From positions 67,208,001 to 67,272,000 of the forward strand of contig OX597828.1 in the NCBI GenBank assembly GCA_951406725.2: 64,000 bases of DNA, written 5' to 3'. Shown here piece by piece: positions 9,590 through 64,000 of this stretch. The notes under the pieces are model-generated. The model did no database searches. It had not been told where the DNA came from and worked only from the letters and a program-made list of their open reading frames with translations. The stretch is from Octopus vulgaris. Lineage: Eukaryota. The translations under genes were made by a program, and so were the position numbers. The stretch's first letter is position 1. Every line of letters starts with the position of its first letter.

Positions 9590-9750
9590 TGTGTTAGTTA
9601 ACCACCGCTTGACGACCGGTGTTTGTTGGTTTACGTCACCGTAACTAGAGGTCCGACAAAAACGTACGTACAGGGGTCGATCTATTTGACTAAATCCTTC
9701 AAGGCGGTGTTCCAGCATGGACGCAGTCCAATGACTGAAACAAGTTAAAG
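9590..9750 (+). mobile_element. SINE-A 3' half, older variant
   Basis: gcttgacgaccggtg..ttcaaggcggtgttccagcatgg..atgactgaaacaag. Confidence 0.8.
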
Positions 9751-9763
9751 GTAAAAGGTAAAG

Positions 9764-9995
9764 GGCGGCGAGCTGGCAGAACCGTTAGCACGCCGGGTGA
9801 AATGCGTAGCCGTATTTCGTCTGCCGTTACGTTCTTAGTTCAAATTCCGCCGAGGTCGACTTTGCCTTTCATCCTTTCGGGGTCGATTAAATAAGTACCA
9901 GTTACGCACTGGGGTCGATATAATCGACTTAATCCCTTTGTCTGTCCTTGTTTGTCCCCTCTGTGTTTAGCCCCTTGTGGGTAGTAAAGAAATAT
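9764..9995 (+). mobile_element. SINE-B full length (Tx1-type tail)
   Basis: A box tggcagaaaccgttag, B box gttcaaattcc, core gtcgactttgcctttcatcctttcggggtcga; ~13-bp TSD gtaaaag(g/a)taaag. Confidence 0.9.
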
Positions 9996-34198: not shown

Positions 34199-35074
34199 CG
34201 TGAGTGTGTGTGAGCGCTTGTGTGTGCTTGTATATGTATTTCTATGTGTGTACGTATGTATATGAATGTGTGTGACGGGGATATCTTCGTGTTTATGTCT
34301 GTGTATGTATGTATGTATGTGTGTATGTATGTATGTATTTATGTATATATATATATGTGTGTGTCTGTGTGTGTGTGCATAATCTGTAATTATTGACACA
34401 TGACAGCTTTCTCGCCCACCCCGCCAACCCTTTTCACATGCACCGTATTTATTCCGCCGCACCGTACCCCCACCAACACCACTGGTACAGGACAGACAAT
34501 ATGACCACTGTGAAGAGTGATATGAATGGAAGAAGAGAGCGAAGGAGTGAATGGTAACATTAACATCACTGTCCTTATTAATTCGCGCTCCGCCTCCTCC
34601 GTTCCCCACCCCTTGTGCCACGCCACCACTCTTAAGATGTTTGTTTTTGTTTTTGTTGTTGTTCCTCTGAGTAGCATACTTCTGCTAGTCTCTTCCAATT
34701 TATCTAAATAAAAGTTTATTTTCTCAAGCCTCTAGAAATAAATTAAAATTCATTGAGAAGATATCAGAGACCAAACTGACAACTTAAGACCTTCACAGAG
34801 AAAGGAAATGAAAAGAAAAAGAAAAAAAGAAATGAAAAGAAAAAAAAAAGAAATTAATAAACGAAAGCGAAACAAAAATGCGGTAAAGTAGTCTTGAAGT
34901 TTCCCATCAAAACTACAGCATCTCACTCGCCATAAAATGTCTGTTTAGGCATATGAGAAAGATGTGATGAGGGAATAAGAGAGATCAGAAACTCTGCTTG
35001 ACTGCTAGACCTTAGCAGCCAAATGACCCTAGGATTATACATTCTACCGTTTTAATAACGATATAAGATCATCA

Positions 35075-35307
35075 GAGGCGGCGAGTTGGCAGACACGTTA
35101 GCACGCCGGGCGAAATGCGTAGCCGTGTTTCGTCTGCCGTTACGTTCTGAGTTCAAATTCCATCGAGATCGACTTTGCCTTTCATCCTTTCGGGGTCGAT
35201 AAATTAAGTACCAGTTGCGCACTGGGGTCGATGTAATCGACTCAATCCGTTTGCCTGTCCTTGTTTGTCCCCTCTATGTTTAGCCTCTTGTGGGTAGTAA
35301 AAAAATA
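35075..35307 (+). mobile_element. SINE-B full length (Tx1-type tail)
   Basis: Same family; 15-bp TSD gatataagatc(a/t)tca at 35060-35074 and 35308-35322. Confidence 0.92.
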
Positions 35308-35734
35308 GATATAAGATCTTCATATGTTGGACAATGTAGAACGTTTTCGACTATAGACTATTGTTCATGGCTATCTTGGAGATAATCAACAATAATCCTA
35401 AGTTAGGAGAGCCTGCATATTATTATTCGAACTACCAAAAATAACAGTAAAATCTCCCTCAAGGAACACTCTCTAAAGTCTACAAAAGCAGGACATATTG
35501 GAAATATGGTTCTAGAAATAACGCGGGAGAAAAAATGACGGAATGGTCATAGCAGGAATGTCTTTGAACGTAGGGTCTGCTTGATATATTTATGCAAGCA
35601 AGTTCACGAATATACTTTTTAGTGACGGTGAATTATATCCTTTTTGATTTTGAATTGCGTTTAGTCATCTTAATCATTTTATAATTTTCACATTACCATT
35701 TTGTGGAATCAGCCACTGATTCATATGGTAAATT

Positions 35735-39438: not shown

Positions 39439-39453
39439 ATTTCATGCTTATAT

Positions 39454-39635
39454 ATGTTTTTTATTACCCACAAGGGGTTAAACACAGAGGGGACAAACAA
39501 AGACAAACAAACGGATTAAGTCGATTACATCGACTCCAGTGCGTAACTGGTACTTATTATCGACCCCGAAAGGATGAAAGGCAAAGTCGACCTCGACGGA
39601 ATTTGAACTCAGAACGTAACGGCAGACGAAATACG
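39454..39635 (-). mobile_element. SINE-B, 3' part (interrupted by the Tx1 LINE)
   Basis: Matches intact SINE-B copies at 9764 and 35075; outer 15-bp TSD atttcatgcttatat at 39439-39453. Confidence 0.92.
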
Positions 39636-39886
39636 AATTTCTTTATTGCCCACCGGGGGCCAAACATAGATATGGACAGTACAACTGATGGGATCAGTGA
39701 ATCGATATGATTTTACATAAATGTGACATCAAAAATAAAATACAATACATAAAAATCGAATGGAATACACAGTACAAAAACAATACAAATGAAGCGATGA
39801 TCAAGTTACGCTCCGATCCCACAAGCCCCGATCTACCGCTGATACCTTTTTATTTTTCCTTTTTTTTTTTTTTTTTCCTCGTCTAT

Positions 39887-42800
39887 TCACACGGTTCCTT
39901 GCACGCACAACACTCGTGCAACATACTTCCATCTCTTTTGGAACGTACACTCTGACAGACACCTCTTCTCCAGCCACAGTTTCCTTTTCAAATGAAAAGA
40001 AAAAAAGGATCGTAAATTGTCACCAGAGATAAAGTTGCCTGTCTTAATTCCTTTTATCTTAGTCTTCCATACAGCCTCTTTTGCTATTGCTACAACCGTG
40101 AGAAAACAATTCTTACTTTCGTTCGTTAGAACTCCCGGTGGGTCAATTTTTATAATTGACTCAGTCGACAGCCGTACTCTTCCTTCGCCGGACAACAGAT
40201 GTTCAGCATAAGCCCACATTTCAGTTATCTCCGGACACTGAACAATAGCGTGAGGGACGGTTTCCCTGTCCCCACCGCATCTTGGACAGGTCGGCGACTG
40301 ACGTTTACCATGTCTTGCGAGCTTATCCCAAACGGGCAAGGCACCTCTGTAGCATTGCCAGGTTAAGGACTTTTGGAAGTTGTCCAACGTTCTCAACCCG
40401 AATGTACGATGAAACAAGCTGTCCAGTTAAATAAATCCGAGACCTAGAGTCGACCCCAGGCCATCGTCGCATTCAGACTCTACCAACCCACTATATAAAA
40501 TCCGTGTGGAACCTCCACCGCTGGCGTTGTCCGAGCGCCGGAACAGCAAGAGGGCCTTACGGCACTCTTTATGCTACTCACTCGACCTCGGTCTACGAGA
40601 ACACCAGGCTTCCTGTTCGCAAAAACTCTTGAACTCAGGGAACATTTGTCTGGCCAGCGGAGACCACACCCGTTCACTATCCAGGAGAATCCAGAGGTGC
40701 CTCAACCTCAACGCATGTCTGCGCATCATTAACCAAGGCATCCCTAAACCTCCATTTAAAGGCTTTTGACAGCAGACAGAGCGTTTCACAAGTGGCGACC
40801 TGCCCTTCCACAAAAAGCGAAAGAGCTGTCTCTCCAACCTGATCAACCACGAATCCGGACAGGGCACGACGGTCAGGCGGTAGGTAATGACCGATGCGAT
40901 AAACACATTGGCTACTTCCGCCCTCCCTTTCAGGGATAGCCACCGCCAAGACCAGGTCTTGACTACTGCAGCCACCCTGCTCAATACCTCCATCCAGTTC
41001 TTCTCTATCTGGAGGCCTGGTCCAAACCAGACTCCCAGCAACTTAACCGGTCCCTCCGTCCAGCGCCTAACAACACTGTCTGAAGGCATCGACTTGCCAA
41101 CCCAGGTGCCGAGCTGCAAGCCGACCGACTTTTCCCGGTTAATCTTTGCTCCTGCTACCTCCTCGTAAGCCTCAATAGTCTTACCTACTTCACGTAGGCG
41201 TGCCACTGTGGTTACACTGATAGTGATATCATCCGCGAAAGCCGTAACAAACTCCTCTAGTCCTGGTTCTCTCGGGATGCCACTCAACCTTTGCAGTAAT
41301 GGCTCGAGAGCCATCACATACAAAAGTGGTGAAAGCGGACATCCTTGACGAACCGAGCGTCTGATGCAGAACGGCTTCGAAAGGAAACCGTTCACCCGAA
41401 CTATCGAGTCAATGTTGTGGTACAAAGCGATAAACCACCTGAGGAAGCCAAGGCCCAGGCCAAACCGCGCAAGTACAGTCGCTAGGTATCGATGGTCAAC
41501 TCTATCAAAAGCTTTAGACTGGTCCAAATGCACCAATGCCCCACCTTTGCCAGATTTATTACCAAACCTCTCTATGGTATAGCGAATAAGATGGAGGGTA
41601 TCCTGAATGGTTCTGCCTGGGATGGCACATGTCTATGCCTCCCCGACTATACCATTCGCGACACGCGCCAACCTTTTTGCTAGAACCTTGGCCAAAATCT
41701 TCACTTCTGCGTTTAACAGAGTGATGGGCCTGAAATTCTCTAGAACGTCCCCCTTGTCCGGGTCCTTTCTGACCAACGTCACTACTCCCCGGCGCACAGA
41801 TCTGGGGATAAACCCATTCTGTTTCCAGTTCGCGTACACGTCAGTCAGTAGTTGCCCGAACAAGTCTGGCATACATTTATACAGCTCGTACGGAAGACCA
41901 TCAAGTCCCGGTGACTTACCCGCTTTACAATCGGCCAAAGCCTCCATCACCTCCTCAGGTGTGATTGGCCCTTCGCAAGACTCCGCATCCGACCCCGAGA
42001 GGCACGACAGCCCGGTAAGAAAGTCCTCGAGGGCTCTCCCACCACCAGGACCGCCGTCACCCCCGAACAGCTGGGCGAAGTACGCCCGAAAGACCTCACA
42101 CATTTTCTCGGGTTCGTTTATCAAGACACCATTTTGATTCGTCAAAGACCGAATAGAGGAACTATTTCCTTGCCGAGCTTCCACCACTCGGGCCCATCCA
42201 GCGGCTTTGATTCCTTCACTTCCCATTGCACGTAACTTAGCTCAGGTAATACTTCCCATGTGGTGGGCTTCAAGATGCTGGTTTAACTCCAGTCTTTTCA
42301 CCCTCGCTTGGTCTGTATTAGCAGTCCTCCAGGCTTCTTCTAGTTCCTTAACTAGACCATCTCCTATTTTACGTCCCTTCTTAGCTAAACTTATGCTAAA
42401 CCTAATAGACTCATATTTGATGGCTCTTTTTAGGGCGTACCACCATTTGTTATTAATGATGGTACCTGTTAATGCCCTCTGTATTAACATCTTGATCCGC
42501 TTTCTGTACTTCTCAATCGCCAAAAGGGACGTATTGAGTTTCTAGTAGCCAGATCCCTGTCTATGCAACTTATCTACCGTCAGTTTACAGGTAACCATCT
42601 TGTGGTCACTGTAGCTGACTAGAAAAAACTGTGGACACTCAACTATGGACTTATCTTTTTCTCTAATTAAAATCCTATCTAGATATGTTCTGGTAGACCC
42701 GTCACTATTTGACCACGTCCACTGTGGAGTGTTCGGGTGCTCCAACCTATATGGATCTGCTAGCTGAAATTGACTTAGCAGATCCCGAAAGCCTGGGTTA

Positions 42801-43560
42801 CATTTTCTGTTCATGTTCGAGTTTGAGCCAACACAATCTGTGTGTGCTGCACATATTGTATTAGAGTCTCCTAACACTACTAGTGAATGCGACGTGGCTA
42901 GGAACTTTCCTAGGCCACGAAAATATTCAGTTTGCGGGCCAATAATGTTTGGTGCATAAATAGCGACCAGCCTGATTGTCTTGCCACAACTGAATGTCAA
43001 GTCGAGAACGACCAGCGTGCCTTCTGGGTCAGAAAAAACCAACTTTTTCTCGGCTACCCGGTTTCTTTTTAGTAGGACCAACACCCCACCCCCACCTCAC
43101 GACAATCTGTGTGTGCTGCACATATTGTATTAGAGTCTCCTAACACTACTAGTGAATGCGACGTGGCTAGGAACTTTCCTAGGCCACGAAAATATTCAGT
43201 TTGCGGGCCAATAATGTTTGGTGCGTAAATAGCGACCAGCCTGATTGTCTTGCCACAACTGAATGTCAAGTCGAGAACGACCAGCCTGCCTTCTGGGTCA
43301 GAAAAAACCAACTTTTTCTCGGCTACCCGGTTTCTTTTTAGTAGGACCAACACCCCACCCCCACCTCCCGCACGACTCGGAGAAACGTATTTCTCGTAGC
43401 CGTTCAGGAGGGGGAGAAGATCTCTTGGCCCCTTCACCCGGGTTTCCGTTGCAACAATTACATCCAAATTTCTCGAGCTGATGTCATTCAGAAAGCGTCC
43501 TTGCTTCCAGCTTGACAACAGGCCATGAACATTTAAACAACCAATGTGAATAGCCATCAC
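39887..43560 (-). pseudogene. Tx1-like ORF2 (APE endonuclease + reverse transcriptase + CCHC), broken by stops, frameshifts and a duplication
   Basis: APE motifs LNVHGL, ETR, YAPN, GDSN, YLDRI, SDH; RT motifs PGLDGLP, NFRPITLLN, LDQSKAFDRVDH, VRQGCPLSP, FADD; CPRC..ETVPHAIVQC; split over six ORF pieces. Confidence 0.93.
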
Positions 43561-43572
43561 TTACCTGTTTAA

Positions 43573-45126
43573 TTAGGATTGTCCGGTGGAGGGGGACCCC
43601 TCCACCTTTTTTTGATCCAGGGTCGGAGGTGGACGGTCTTGGGAAATAGATTTGTCAAAATCCCGTCTCACCACCGACACAGAATTATCAGGTGGAGGGG
43701 GAATCTCCACCTTTTCCTTTTCTCGTGGGATCGGAGCTGGTAATCCCTGAAATATCGACTTGTTAAAATCTAATCTCAATGAAGATACAGTCTTTCTGTA
43801 CTTATTTTGTAGAATTCTATAAGTCTTATTTGAGACTTCATATATGTCGTAATTGATAAATTCCTCTGAAAGGTTATCAATTTTTTTTACAGTCTTTATG
43901 AGTTGAATGTCTCTCATGAGCTCAGTATCTTTAGTGTATACGGCTATTATGCCTTTTTCTACTTTTTCTCTTCTGGCAGTCTTTTTTGGTCGTTGTTCTG
44001 TAGTAGTCGCCGCTCTCGGCTGGGTTGCTGGTTGTATTTTTCTTTTGTTTGTTGTTTTTTTCTCACCTGTTTCTTCTTTATCTTCTTCCTCTTTGTCTTT
44101 TTTCTCCTCTTCCTCCTCTTCTTCATTTTCCTTGCAGTTCCTTCGAATGTGGCCTAATTGACCACATAAAAAACATCGAGGTTCTCGGCCCTCAACAAAC
44201 ACCACGAGGTTCTCCTCCCCTACCTCAATTGTCTCAGGAATTGTTTGAATTATTTTAGGGTCCGCTTGAATGAGAAGATTAATTGTTTGACCATCCCAGC
44301 GTGGGTTTTCCGTAGCGGTAGCCTGGAGGAGAGTAATTTTTTCTACCTCTTTGATTAGGACTGCTGCCAACAACCACATAGGTTCGACCTCTGGCGGGAC
44401 CCTTGTGATTTTTATTCGCGACGTCCTCATCCCAATATAATAGGGGATTAACTCCACGTCGTTCGTTTTCAACGTTTCAACTGAGTTCTTGTGTGCTATT
44501 TCTTTATTGGTGAACCTTACTTCCACCGTTCCGAATTTTTTTCCTCTTCTCAGAAATACTACGTCGCCCAATATTGGCTTTAAGCACTTTTCTATTTTCT
44601 CTTCTGACATTCTTTCAATTTTTCTTTTTTGTAGACAATATGTTTTGAAAATTATTGTTTTTTGCTTTTCTTCCTGTAATAACTTTTGCGGAGGTTCAAT
44701 TTTCACACCGTTGTCAGTTATTTCCATCATTTTGCTGTATTTCATAATTTCGCTTTTATTCGTCGACAGTATCTGGGTTCCACCCCCAGCAGCCAACGCA
44801 AAACTTTTTTTTCCATTTTTTGGTTCTATCTGGATGCTAGGCACATCAATTATTCTCTTCGACACAATGCCTTTGTTCTCTGGCAAAGTCGGAAACTCTT
44901 CTGGTGAAAGTTCTGACGAGCTCTCAGACACATCTCCAAAAATATCAAATATATTATCCTCTCTGCTATTCCTTCTTGTAGCGGGGGAAACCCCTATTTC
45001 TTTGTCTGTATTTGGCTCCTCGCCGGACATGTATTTCCTCCTCTCAACAGGAGAAACAAGTATTTCTGCTCCAACGGTAGGCTCCATGCTAGACGACATT
45101 CTTCCCCCCAAAGGGGGAATGAACAA
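43573..45126 (-). CDS. Tx1-like LINE ORF1 nucleic-acid-binding protein (517 aa; ATG start probably at MSSSMEP)
   Basis: Uninterrupted ORF with CFLCGQLGHIRRNC zinc knuckle followed by charged low-complexity region; lies directly upstream of ORF2. Confidence 0.85.
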   Translation of the reverse strand: MFIPPLGGRMSSSMEPTVGAEILVSPVERRKYMSGEEPNTDKEIGVSPATRRNSREDNIFDIFGDVSESSSELSPEEFPTLPENKGIVSKRIIDVPSIQIEPKNGKKSFALAAGGGTQILSTNKSEIMKYSKMMEITDNGVKIEPPQKLLQEEKQKTIIFKTYCLQKRKIERMSEEKIEKCLKPILGDVVFLRRGKKFGTVEVRFTNKEIAHKNSVETLKTNDVELIPYYIGMRTSRIKITRVPPEVEPMWLLAAVLIKEVEKITLLQATATENPRWDGQTINLLIQADPKIIQTIPETIEVGEENLVVFVEGREPRCFLCGQLGHIRRNCKENEEEEEEEKKDKEEEDKEETGEKKTTNKRKIQPATQPRAATTTEQRPKKTARREKVEKGIIAVYTKDTELMRDIQLIKTVKKIDNLSEEFINYDIYEVSNKTYRILQNKYRKTVSSLRLDFNKSIFQGLPAPIPREKEKVEIPPPPDNSVSVVRRDFDKSISQDRPPPTLDQKKVEGSPSTGQS

Positions 45127-45263
45127 CGCGTGCTACCACAAGCACTAAGTGTTTTCAATTGAAAACTCCAACAGTTAAGTTATTCAACAGTTTAACAAGA
45201 AACAACAGTTGTTAACAATATTAACACCACGAAACAGCAATTCTTACTTCACGAACACATGTG

Positions 45264-45329
45264 CGGCAGACGAAATACGGCTACGCATTTCGCCCGGCGT
45301 GCTAACGTTTCTGCCTGCTCGCCGCCCTC
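45264..45329 (-). mobile_element. SINE-B, 5' tRNA-like head (interrupted by the Tx1 LINE)
   Basis: Reverse complement of ggcggcgag..gcagaaacgttagcacgccgggcgaaatgcgtagccgtatttcgtctgccg; TSD atttcatgcttatat at 45330-45344. Confidence 0.92.
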
Positions 45330-45344
45330 ATTTCATGCTTATAT

Positions 45345-47698: not shown

Positions 47699-48381
47699 GT
47701 GGTTGTTGTTGTTATGATCACTATTAAAGTACCAGCCAAGCACTGGGATCGATGTACTCACGTTGTCCCTCTCCTCAAAATTATCTCAAAATTAGAAAAA
47801 AATTGTTATTATTATTGTTGTTGATTGTCATCAAAGCTGGACGTTTTTCGGAAGGTCCTTGAGTTTGTACTCTGTTTTCCTTATTAGAAGTCTGTTTTTT
47901 TTTACTTATTCTATTGTTCTTCCCAAGTTCGTCTATTGTTCTTTATTCGACCAGAACCCTAAGAGACTGATAAAATGATTTTATTACTCGCCCTATGGGA
48001 AGAGATTTTTTGAAAGAAAGATCTTTCGAAACAAAATAAATAAATAAATAAATAAATAATCAATCTTGCAATTTTTATTCTCTATCACAGCCTCTGGTTC
48101 GTGTTTATACCATTTTCCTGTGTTACTTCTAAGTCACGCATTCGGCTAACATTCTAATGCACTCTTTTGCTTACACAGTCATGTGAGTGCTTTTAATCTT
48201 TTTGTACTGGTTTACTGCACTCACTCAAGAGAAGATTGATATTTTCGTCTTTCTTTCCTGCAGATTCTACATTTGCTCTCTAACTAGGTTTCTGGGTTTT
48301 GTTGATCTTTTGCTTTCTATCAGATTAGTTCTATTGAATAGTTTTCGGGGCTATTATTGTTGTTATTTTGTATAAGCACAA

Positions 48382-48594
48382 GGTGGCGAACTGGCAGAAA
48401 CGTTAGCACGCCGGGCGAAATGCTTAGCAGTATTCCCTCTGCCGTTACGTTCTGAGTTCAAATTCCGCCGAGATCGACTTTGCCTTTCATCCTTACTGGG
48501 TCGATAAATTAAGTACCAGTTACGCACTGGGTTCAATCTAATCGACTGGAATCCTCCTCTAAAATTTCGGGCCTTGTGCCTAGAGTAGAAAATA
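48382..48594 (+). mobile_element. SINE-B (alternative tail), inserted in the 3' end of an R4/Dong-like element
   Basis: 17-bp TSD atttt(g/a)tataagcacaa at 48365-48381 and 48595-48611. Confidence 0.9.
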
Positions 48595-48611
48595 ATTTTA
48601 TATAAGCACAA

Positions 48612-63349: not shown

Positions 63350-63795
63350 CGTGTGTGTGCACACGTCGGTACGTGTATGCGTAACTCTCAAAATCAGGTG
63401 CTAGTGCTAATGTGAGAATGAATTTCACACTGCTTTAACAGTTTCTCTTTGTTCTTGTGTCTGCGAGTAATTTGTAAACTCTTAGTCTGTAGAATCGCGC
63501 AGCCTGGTTTGGCAGCTGCAGCATAAAACCATTTCCTTGGTCCTCCAAAAAGAACAAAAAAAAAAAGAGGAAGAAAGACAATTGGCTGATAAACTTGGCG
63601 TTTAGTTGAAACTTTTCAAAGAGTAACAATAATTGGAAAATACGAGCAGACATCTTGTGGTTTTTGTTGTTGTTTAGTTCCATCTTGTCCGAGCAAACAG
63701 ATGATTAAAAGAGTTCCAGTGTTCCTTCGCTATCTTTTTCCGTACTTATTAAACATATGACTCCATTATACAACGGGATCCTACTATCTTATTTC

Positions 63796-64000
63796 ATTAC
63801 ATCGAGCCCAGTGCGTAACTGGTACTTATTTAATCGAACACGAAAGGATGAAAGGCAAAGTCGACCTCGGCGGAATTTGAACTCAGAACGTAACGGCAGA
63901 CGAAATACCTATTTCTTTATTACCCACAAGGGGCGAAACACAGAGGGGACAAACAAGGACAGACAAAGAGATTAAGTCCATTACATCGACCCCAGTGCGT
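63796..64000 (-). mobile_element. SINE-B nested in SINE-B (runs off window)
   Basis: Host SINE-B 63796-63908 breaks after cggcagacgaaatac and is followed by the 3' tail of a second SINE-B from 63909. Confidence 0.88.

Follow-up and report, generated by a model that had tools for sequence, protein, structure and literature searches.

The window, a 64-kb stretch of Octopus vulgaris DNA, contains near its last position a SINE interrupted by the 3' end of another SINE, as well as an L1/Tx1-like LINE that splits a further SINE copy at the same point. The SINE family, called SINE-B in the preliminary description, is approximately 231 nt in length and is represented by 10 stretches within the window. 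An intact copy provides the reference for all SINE positions given below.

9764..9994, plus strand: intact SINE, taken as the reference; the common site falls at position 9811, which is 184 nt away from where the SINE ends

Structurally, SINE-B resembles a tRNA-derived SINE in that its copies in the window are short, dispersed, non-coding, and bounded by TSD-like repeats. Direct repeats of 13 to 15 nt flank five of the six other copies tested and outscored 200 of 200 shuffles; one of these five copies sits in (TA)n, one in the tail of another repeat, and three have clean, non-repetitive flanks. The TSDs of three dispersed copies (35060-35321, 39439-45344, and 48365-48611) carry TATAAG near their start. 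Judged by eye against the box consensus, the SINE head contains A- and B-box-like motifs; ARAGORN returned 0 tRNA genes in the head and Rfam 0 matches up to an E value of 10. There is no run of four T on the sense strand in the three intact copies tested or at the junction locus. The intact copy is another nested insertion, as it lies within the tail repeats (9665-9763) of an element from a different SINE-like family. The window as a whole is rich in repeats, microsatellites included, and the short segment 61660-61850 looks like the 3' terminus of a further LINE, one whose tail consists of a short repeat. Outside the window, the SINE core was found in none of the genome contigs or viral contigs searched, and a search of metagenome contigs for the junction pattern gave two matches, both due to chance and neither with similarity to the SINE.

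The nested junction lies at 63909/63910, with the SINE at 63796-64000 read on the minus strand. Its parts are as follows.

63910..64000, minus strand: inserted SINE, 3' 91 nt, with a LINE-like tail and predicted hairpin; runs past the end of the window
63894..63909, minus strand: target half-site of the host, 16 nt, the predicted downstream TSD copy; 15 of 16 positions identical to the LINE TSD
63796..63909, minus strand: host SINE body downstream of the insertion; 108 of 113 positions match the intact copy over 63796-63908
63774..63795, minus strand: host SINE end, lacking about 65 nt of tail together with the hairpin; flank begins after a short remnant (63789-63795)

It had been proposed that the host SINE breaks at 63908 and is followed by the 3' end of another SINE in the same orientation; both of the junctions quoted in that proposal were found, and the junction at 63909/63910 is confirmed as real. 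The insert (63910-64000) matches the intact copy at 86 of 91 positions. It is through these 91 nt of 3' end that the inner SINE is known, as its 5' junction and any second TSD copy would lie past 64000, outside the window. In the host body, positions 63872-63884 hold a B-box-like motif. The loss of the host tail apparently occurred between two short GTAAT-like words at 63789-63796, and the flank after the remnant is predicted to be the TSD of the host SINE itself.

The LINE lies elsewhere in the window, on the same strand.

39636..45263, minus strand: L1/Tx1-like LINE, 5.6 kb; ORF1 (43573-45132) has a zinc knuckle, and the fragmented ORF2 encodes APE, RT, and zf-RVT
39620..39635, minus strand: TSD of the LINE, the copy next to its 3' end, exact over 16 nt
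45264..45279, minus strand: TSD of the LINE, the copy next to its 5' end, exact over 16 nt
45264..45326, minus strand: head of the SINE hosting the LINE, containing an A-box-like motif
39455..39635, minus strand: body and tail of the SINE hosting the LINE; the host copy is in turn bounded by an exact TSD of 15 nt (45330-45344 and 39439-39453)

Pfam identifies zf-CCHC, Exo_endo_phos, RVT_1, and zf-RVT domains in the LINE, and the combination of an ORF1 zinc knuckle with an ORF2 bearing APE and an L1-group RT is the architecture of the Tx1 clade. The closest solved relatives are human L1 ORF2p and the L1 endonuclease, while named relatives occur in Argonauta hians (59%) and Acanthosepion pharaonis (50%); the names given to the homologues indicate no clade, and the viral contigs searched contained no LINE relatives. 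The copy is broken, with its ORF2 in pieces, and its endonuclease region carries a 269-bp tandem duplication (42833-43370, 98.9%) that is either real or an assembly artifact. The LINE interrupts a single SINE copy, and the exact TSD of 16 bp on either side of it fixes the position of the nick. The evidence on targeting by the LINE consists of this one full copy and of one LINE-type tail at the site, described below.

The LINE and the inner SINE are joined to their hosts at the same base. The 10-mer GACGAAATAC ends at 63908 at the SINE junction and at 39634 at the LINE junction, and TTTCTTTATT begins 4 nt after the end of GACGAAATAC in both cases, at 63912 and 39638. Because the spacing is equal, the register of the two junctions is identical. 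The two elements also resemble each other at their 3' ends. Aligned to the terminal 48 nt of the LINE, the inserted SINE tail matches in 39 of 48 columns and scores 50, the best of five SINE tails. For the tail of the intact copy, the terminal LINE window scores 45, while other 100-nt windows of the LINE score no more than 20. Both tails are predicted to fold into the same small hairpin, and such a common 3' tail with a predicted stem-loop is what is found in a stringent SINE/LINE pair. As the tails are approximately 81% alike and the LINE copy is broken, a sister LINE family may be the actual partner. The preliminary description had attributed both insertions to the same endonuclease. This attribution is supported by the common 3' tail with its predicted hairpin, by TSDs of 13 to 16 nt, by the identical register, and by two further junctions in that register in public sequencing runs. 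As a reading of sequence, it is well supported that SINE and LINE form a pair that would share one machinery and a preferred common site.

The favored site is not exclusive, as four of the five SINE tails of the junction type in the window lie outside any SINE head. The motif N-R-T-A-W follows all six tails of this type, although it was defined after the fact and covers 5540 of 128000 positions (4.3%). Another SINE family in the window also runs into TA-rich sequence. Under uniform insertion, the probability that at least one of five SINE tails falls on one of the nine homologous sites in the window is 3.5e-4, and it rises to 0.008 to 0.011 if insertion is limited to the short motif common to the tails; both figures ignore the fact that the window was selected for showing the junction. 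There is no microhomology at the join, and both the end of the tail and its diagnostic bases are of the SINE type, not the LINE type. A microhomology-mediated join of an intact tail and head was considered and rejected.

Additional information on the site comes from public sequencing runs. Four of the 24 runs listed (X10, X21, X22, and X23) were compared with the intact copy at 9764-9994; the 15 runs other than X10 with a word share of 0.35 or less were left outside this comparison. X10 consists of contigs under another organism label and was partly counted, and X22 consists of raw reads. Matching reads numbered 17, 217, and 0 in X21, X22, and X23, out of 12.9 million each, figures from which copy numbers are not scalable. 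Among the joints listed for X10, at least one carries a LINE-type tail in the same register (9811), and several join a 3' end to approximately 9777-9778, versus the one at 9811. The joints at 9777-9778 form a recurrent tail-to-head class within the A-box-like motif, with one contig at a depth of 547, and this class may represent a second hot spot or a common dimer. X22 contains at least 39 loose ends in which the SINE end, with a tail of the SINE type, is followed by 13 nt of the site and then by SINE position 9929, and at least 25 in which 9929 is preceded by the tail plus the same 13 nt. Together these loose ends give a unit of 79 nt repeated head to tail; because matching reads are few, its organism and copy number are uncertain. 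Depth over this unit is about three times that over the SINE head, and about half of the reads over it have shared changes. There are thus four junctions in one register (two in the window, one in X10, and one in X22), and they differ in tails, target bases, and structures. The runs also bear on the first base of the target site, which is G at the SINE junction but C at the LINE junction. In the SINE-matching contigs of X10 this position is most often G (76% of summed depth, with A at 20%), and G is present in 19 of 23 reads of X22, so that the difference is explained by a variant of the host. Finally, three runs contain 79 to 85% of the sampled words of 63380-64000. This measure is not specific to the junction, and the assembly may derive from one of these runs.

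The same data speak to the proposal that repeated rounds of insertion build tandem arrays because each new copy brings a fresh target. This proposal is unsupported: four of five tails lie elsewhere, a new site requires at least 184 of the 231 nt, and the sole tandem unit seen is without it. Only inserts of at least 184 nt carry a new site, and the visible part of the present insert is 91 nt. The 79-nt unit of X22, a single example, is always truncated at the same point and brings no complete new site; a self-feeding array would instead show a complete new site per unit and varied truncation, which the one unit examined does not. Duplication between TSDs fits this unit better than rounds of fresh targeting. 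With roughly one in five insertions hitting a SINE head, a rate taken from a small sample, nesting would be expected to die out after dimers or trimers.

Distant relatives of the LINE are present in metagenome bins. Sixty-one of 64 loci (L003-L063) are LINE relatives, with an RT identity of 48 to 50%, on contigs of 13 to 94 kb from one MAG labeled Arenicella; these are evidently animal DNA in a bacterial bin, that is, host-like contamination. In the nine loci that were mapped, long ORFs are arranged head to tail with a period of 6.4 to 6.8 kb, and in eight of the nine the neighboring units are 96 to 99.9% identical. No tRNA, Rfam RNA, or conserved spacer was found between the units of these mapped loci, which could be telomere- or satellite-like LINE arrays. 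Another relative, at 1300-7016 of L064 in a MAG labeled Anaerolineae, ends on a 5'-truncated U2 gene inside a U1/U2/5S gene repeat. Its RT is 44% identical in the best segment and scores 81, 49, and 19 bits over three frames, compared with 83 for human L1. Its position against the U2 gene fits membership in the Tx1 clade, judged by similarity comparison and not by placement in a tree. These relatives also match a second type of SINE tail (48545-48600), which resembles the 3' end of related LINEs, with agreement in 25 of 30 columns in L006, and scores above all 40 shuffles in four of the ten LINE loci tested. The tails at 63910, 9929, 4059, 54399, and 49679 and the end of the window LINE gave no convincing match to the 3' ends of L006 to L064. 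Tail exchange within the SINE family appears to take place close to consensus position 9929.

We consider the best explanation, with a probability of about 0.6, to be independent target-primed insertion by an L1/Tx1-like partner at a favored, non-exclusive site between the promoter-like boxes of the SINE. The insertion at 63909/63910 likely occurred by TPRT, with endonuclease and RT supplied by the L1/Tx1-like LINE family or by a closely related sister family. The LINE protein would bind the tail hairpin of the SINE RNA, the bottom strand would be nicked just before N-R-T-A-W, and the SINE RNA would be copied in with a duplication of 13 to 16 nt. Since a copy of the favored motif lies in the SINE head, between the A- and B-box-like motifs, both LINEs and SINEs would land there repeatedly, with most SINE copies going to other AT-rich sites. 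Tandem arrays, where present, would mostly grow later through DNA-level duplication between TSDs.

It is possible, although rather unlikely, that targeted insertion took place once or a few times and that its product went on to multiply as a SINE subfamily of dimers or tandem units, of which the locus would be one dimer copy. Dimeric and multimeric SINEs are known from the available text of PMC10702118, the absence of a T4 run from the three intact copies and the locus would allow Pol III to read through, and the changes shared by about half of the X22 reads are the mark of one amplified variant. Nevertheless, no single dimer covers the four same-register junctions, which differ in tail type, target bases, and structure, and the host is without the tail hairpin needed to move a dimer, unless this was lost later. 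A join made at the DNA level is improbable, whether through recombination between a SINE tail and the similar tail of a LINE already present at the site, through loss or duplication of DNA between SINE copies, or as a chimera of the assembly. The similarity of the tails over 48 nt would facilitate such an event, as would the abundance of repeats in the window, and a deletion did occur close by in the host SINE; yet the last and diagnostic bases of the tail are SINE-type, the join lacks microhomology, and the words of 63380-64000 are largely present (79 to 85% of those sampled) in three runs, though with the junction itself not singled out.

The least credible account is coincidence, in which an unrelated LINE with a weak preference for TA, such as an RTE element, mobilized the SINE and the same base was reached by chance. 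N-R-T-A-W is indeed weak and common, and RTE elements are abundant in octopods according to the accessible portion of PMC8967140. This account is very hard to reconcile with a chance of approximately 0.01 even under a motif-only model, with the two further same-register junctions, or with a tail held in common with the LINE. In addition, the TSDs do not consistently follow a stretch of T, unlike the RTE signature as given in the part of PMC6007223 consulted.

Building on independent target-primed insertion, we put forward a more tentative proposal, which we regard as possible but more doubtful than not: that an octopod Tx1-like LINE aims mainly at the internal promoter region of the SINE that is its passenger, which would lock the LINE and its parasite into a closed feedback loop. 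If so, the LINE would gain harmless landing sites as the SINE expands, every LINE insertion would separate the A box of a SINE from its B box and thereby silence a competitor, and dimers and arrays would start from full-length SINEs landing at the site. With the target located in the passenger SINE, the two elements would have coupled copy numbers, and the host-parasite conflict between transposons would become countable in existing assemblies. More practically, the pair names the likely partner LINE of an abundant cephalopod SINE, and nesting at fixed sites could inflate counts of SINE families and explain some composite repeats.

SINEs make up 11.6% of the O. vulgaris genome (PMC13282606, in the text available). 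Papers on octopus repeats list L1-Tx1 elements and abundant SINEs, and the portions available (PMC13282606, PMC8967140, and PMC4758252) do not mention targeting or nesting. The literature searched gave no account of the octopus pair or of a LINE targeting its own passenger SINE, although Repbase, subscription papers, or supplements may hold one.

With respect to the tandem unit, arrays of the form TSD-(SINE-TSD)n are described in Scapharca broughtonii, where unequal recombination between TSDs, as opposed to self-targeting, has been proposed (accessible sections of PMC11481361), and SINE-derived satellites are described in squamates (likewise for PMC10702118). The 79-nt unit of X22 is similar to both, being made up of a 13-nt piece of the target and the SINE end with constant truncation. 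It differs from the Scapharca arrays, as those appear in the same sections of PMC11481361, in that the repeated TSD is itself SINE sequence.

The octopus elements resemble the stringent SINE/LINE pairs of PMC3747384, as far as the available text of that paper describes them, in having a common 3' end with a predicted stem-loop. Unlike the pairs described there, the partner is L1/Tx1-like, and the SINE family has at least two tail types that match the LINE lineage.

Target-specific elements of the Tx1 clade include Tx1 in Tx1D, Keno in U2 snRNA genes, Kibi and Koshi in microsatellites, and Dewa in the spacers of tRNA-Leu (PMC4494074, PMC4640811, and PMC3706591, each in its accessible part). The octopus LINE is like these in combining APE and RT with a multicopy target and a short TSD, but its site is the head of a putative tRNA-type SINE, unlike the targets described in those parts of the three papers. 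The arrangement of L064 on a U2 gene lacking its 5' part is that of Keno as presented in the available text of PMC4640811.

The closest precedent is found in crocodilians, where SINEU-3 and Tx1-Mar have a common target in a Mariner DNA transposon, which was taken to indicate shared machinery (Kojima 2015, PMC4494074, in the portion available to us). Tandem copies of SINEU-3 sandwich a TSD and were read there as sequential insertions. As in the octopus, a SINE and a Tx1-type LINE have a common target inside another repeat. The two systems differ in fidelity, with 90% of near-full-length SINEU-3 copies using the Mariner target (same portion of PMC4494074) versus one of five window tails at the octopus site. 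They also differ in the nature of the target, which is Mariner for SINEU-3 and Tx1-Mar in that account and the head of the mobilized SINE itself in the octopus. Shared targeting by a SINE and a LINE is therefore known already, and a target located within the head of the passenger SINE is the unusual twist.
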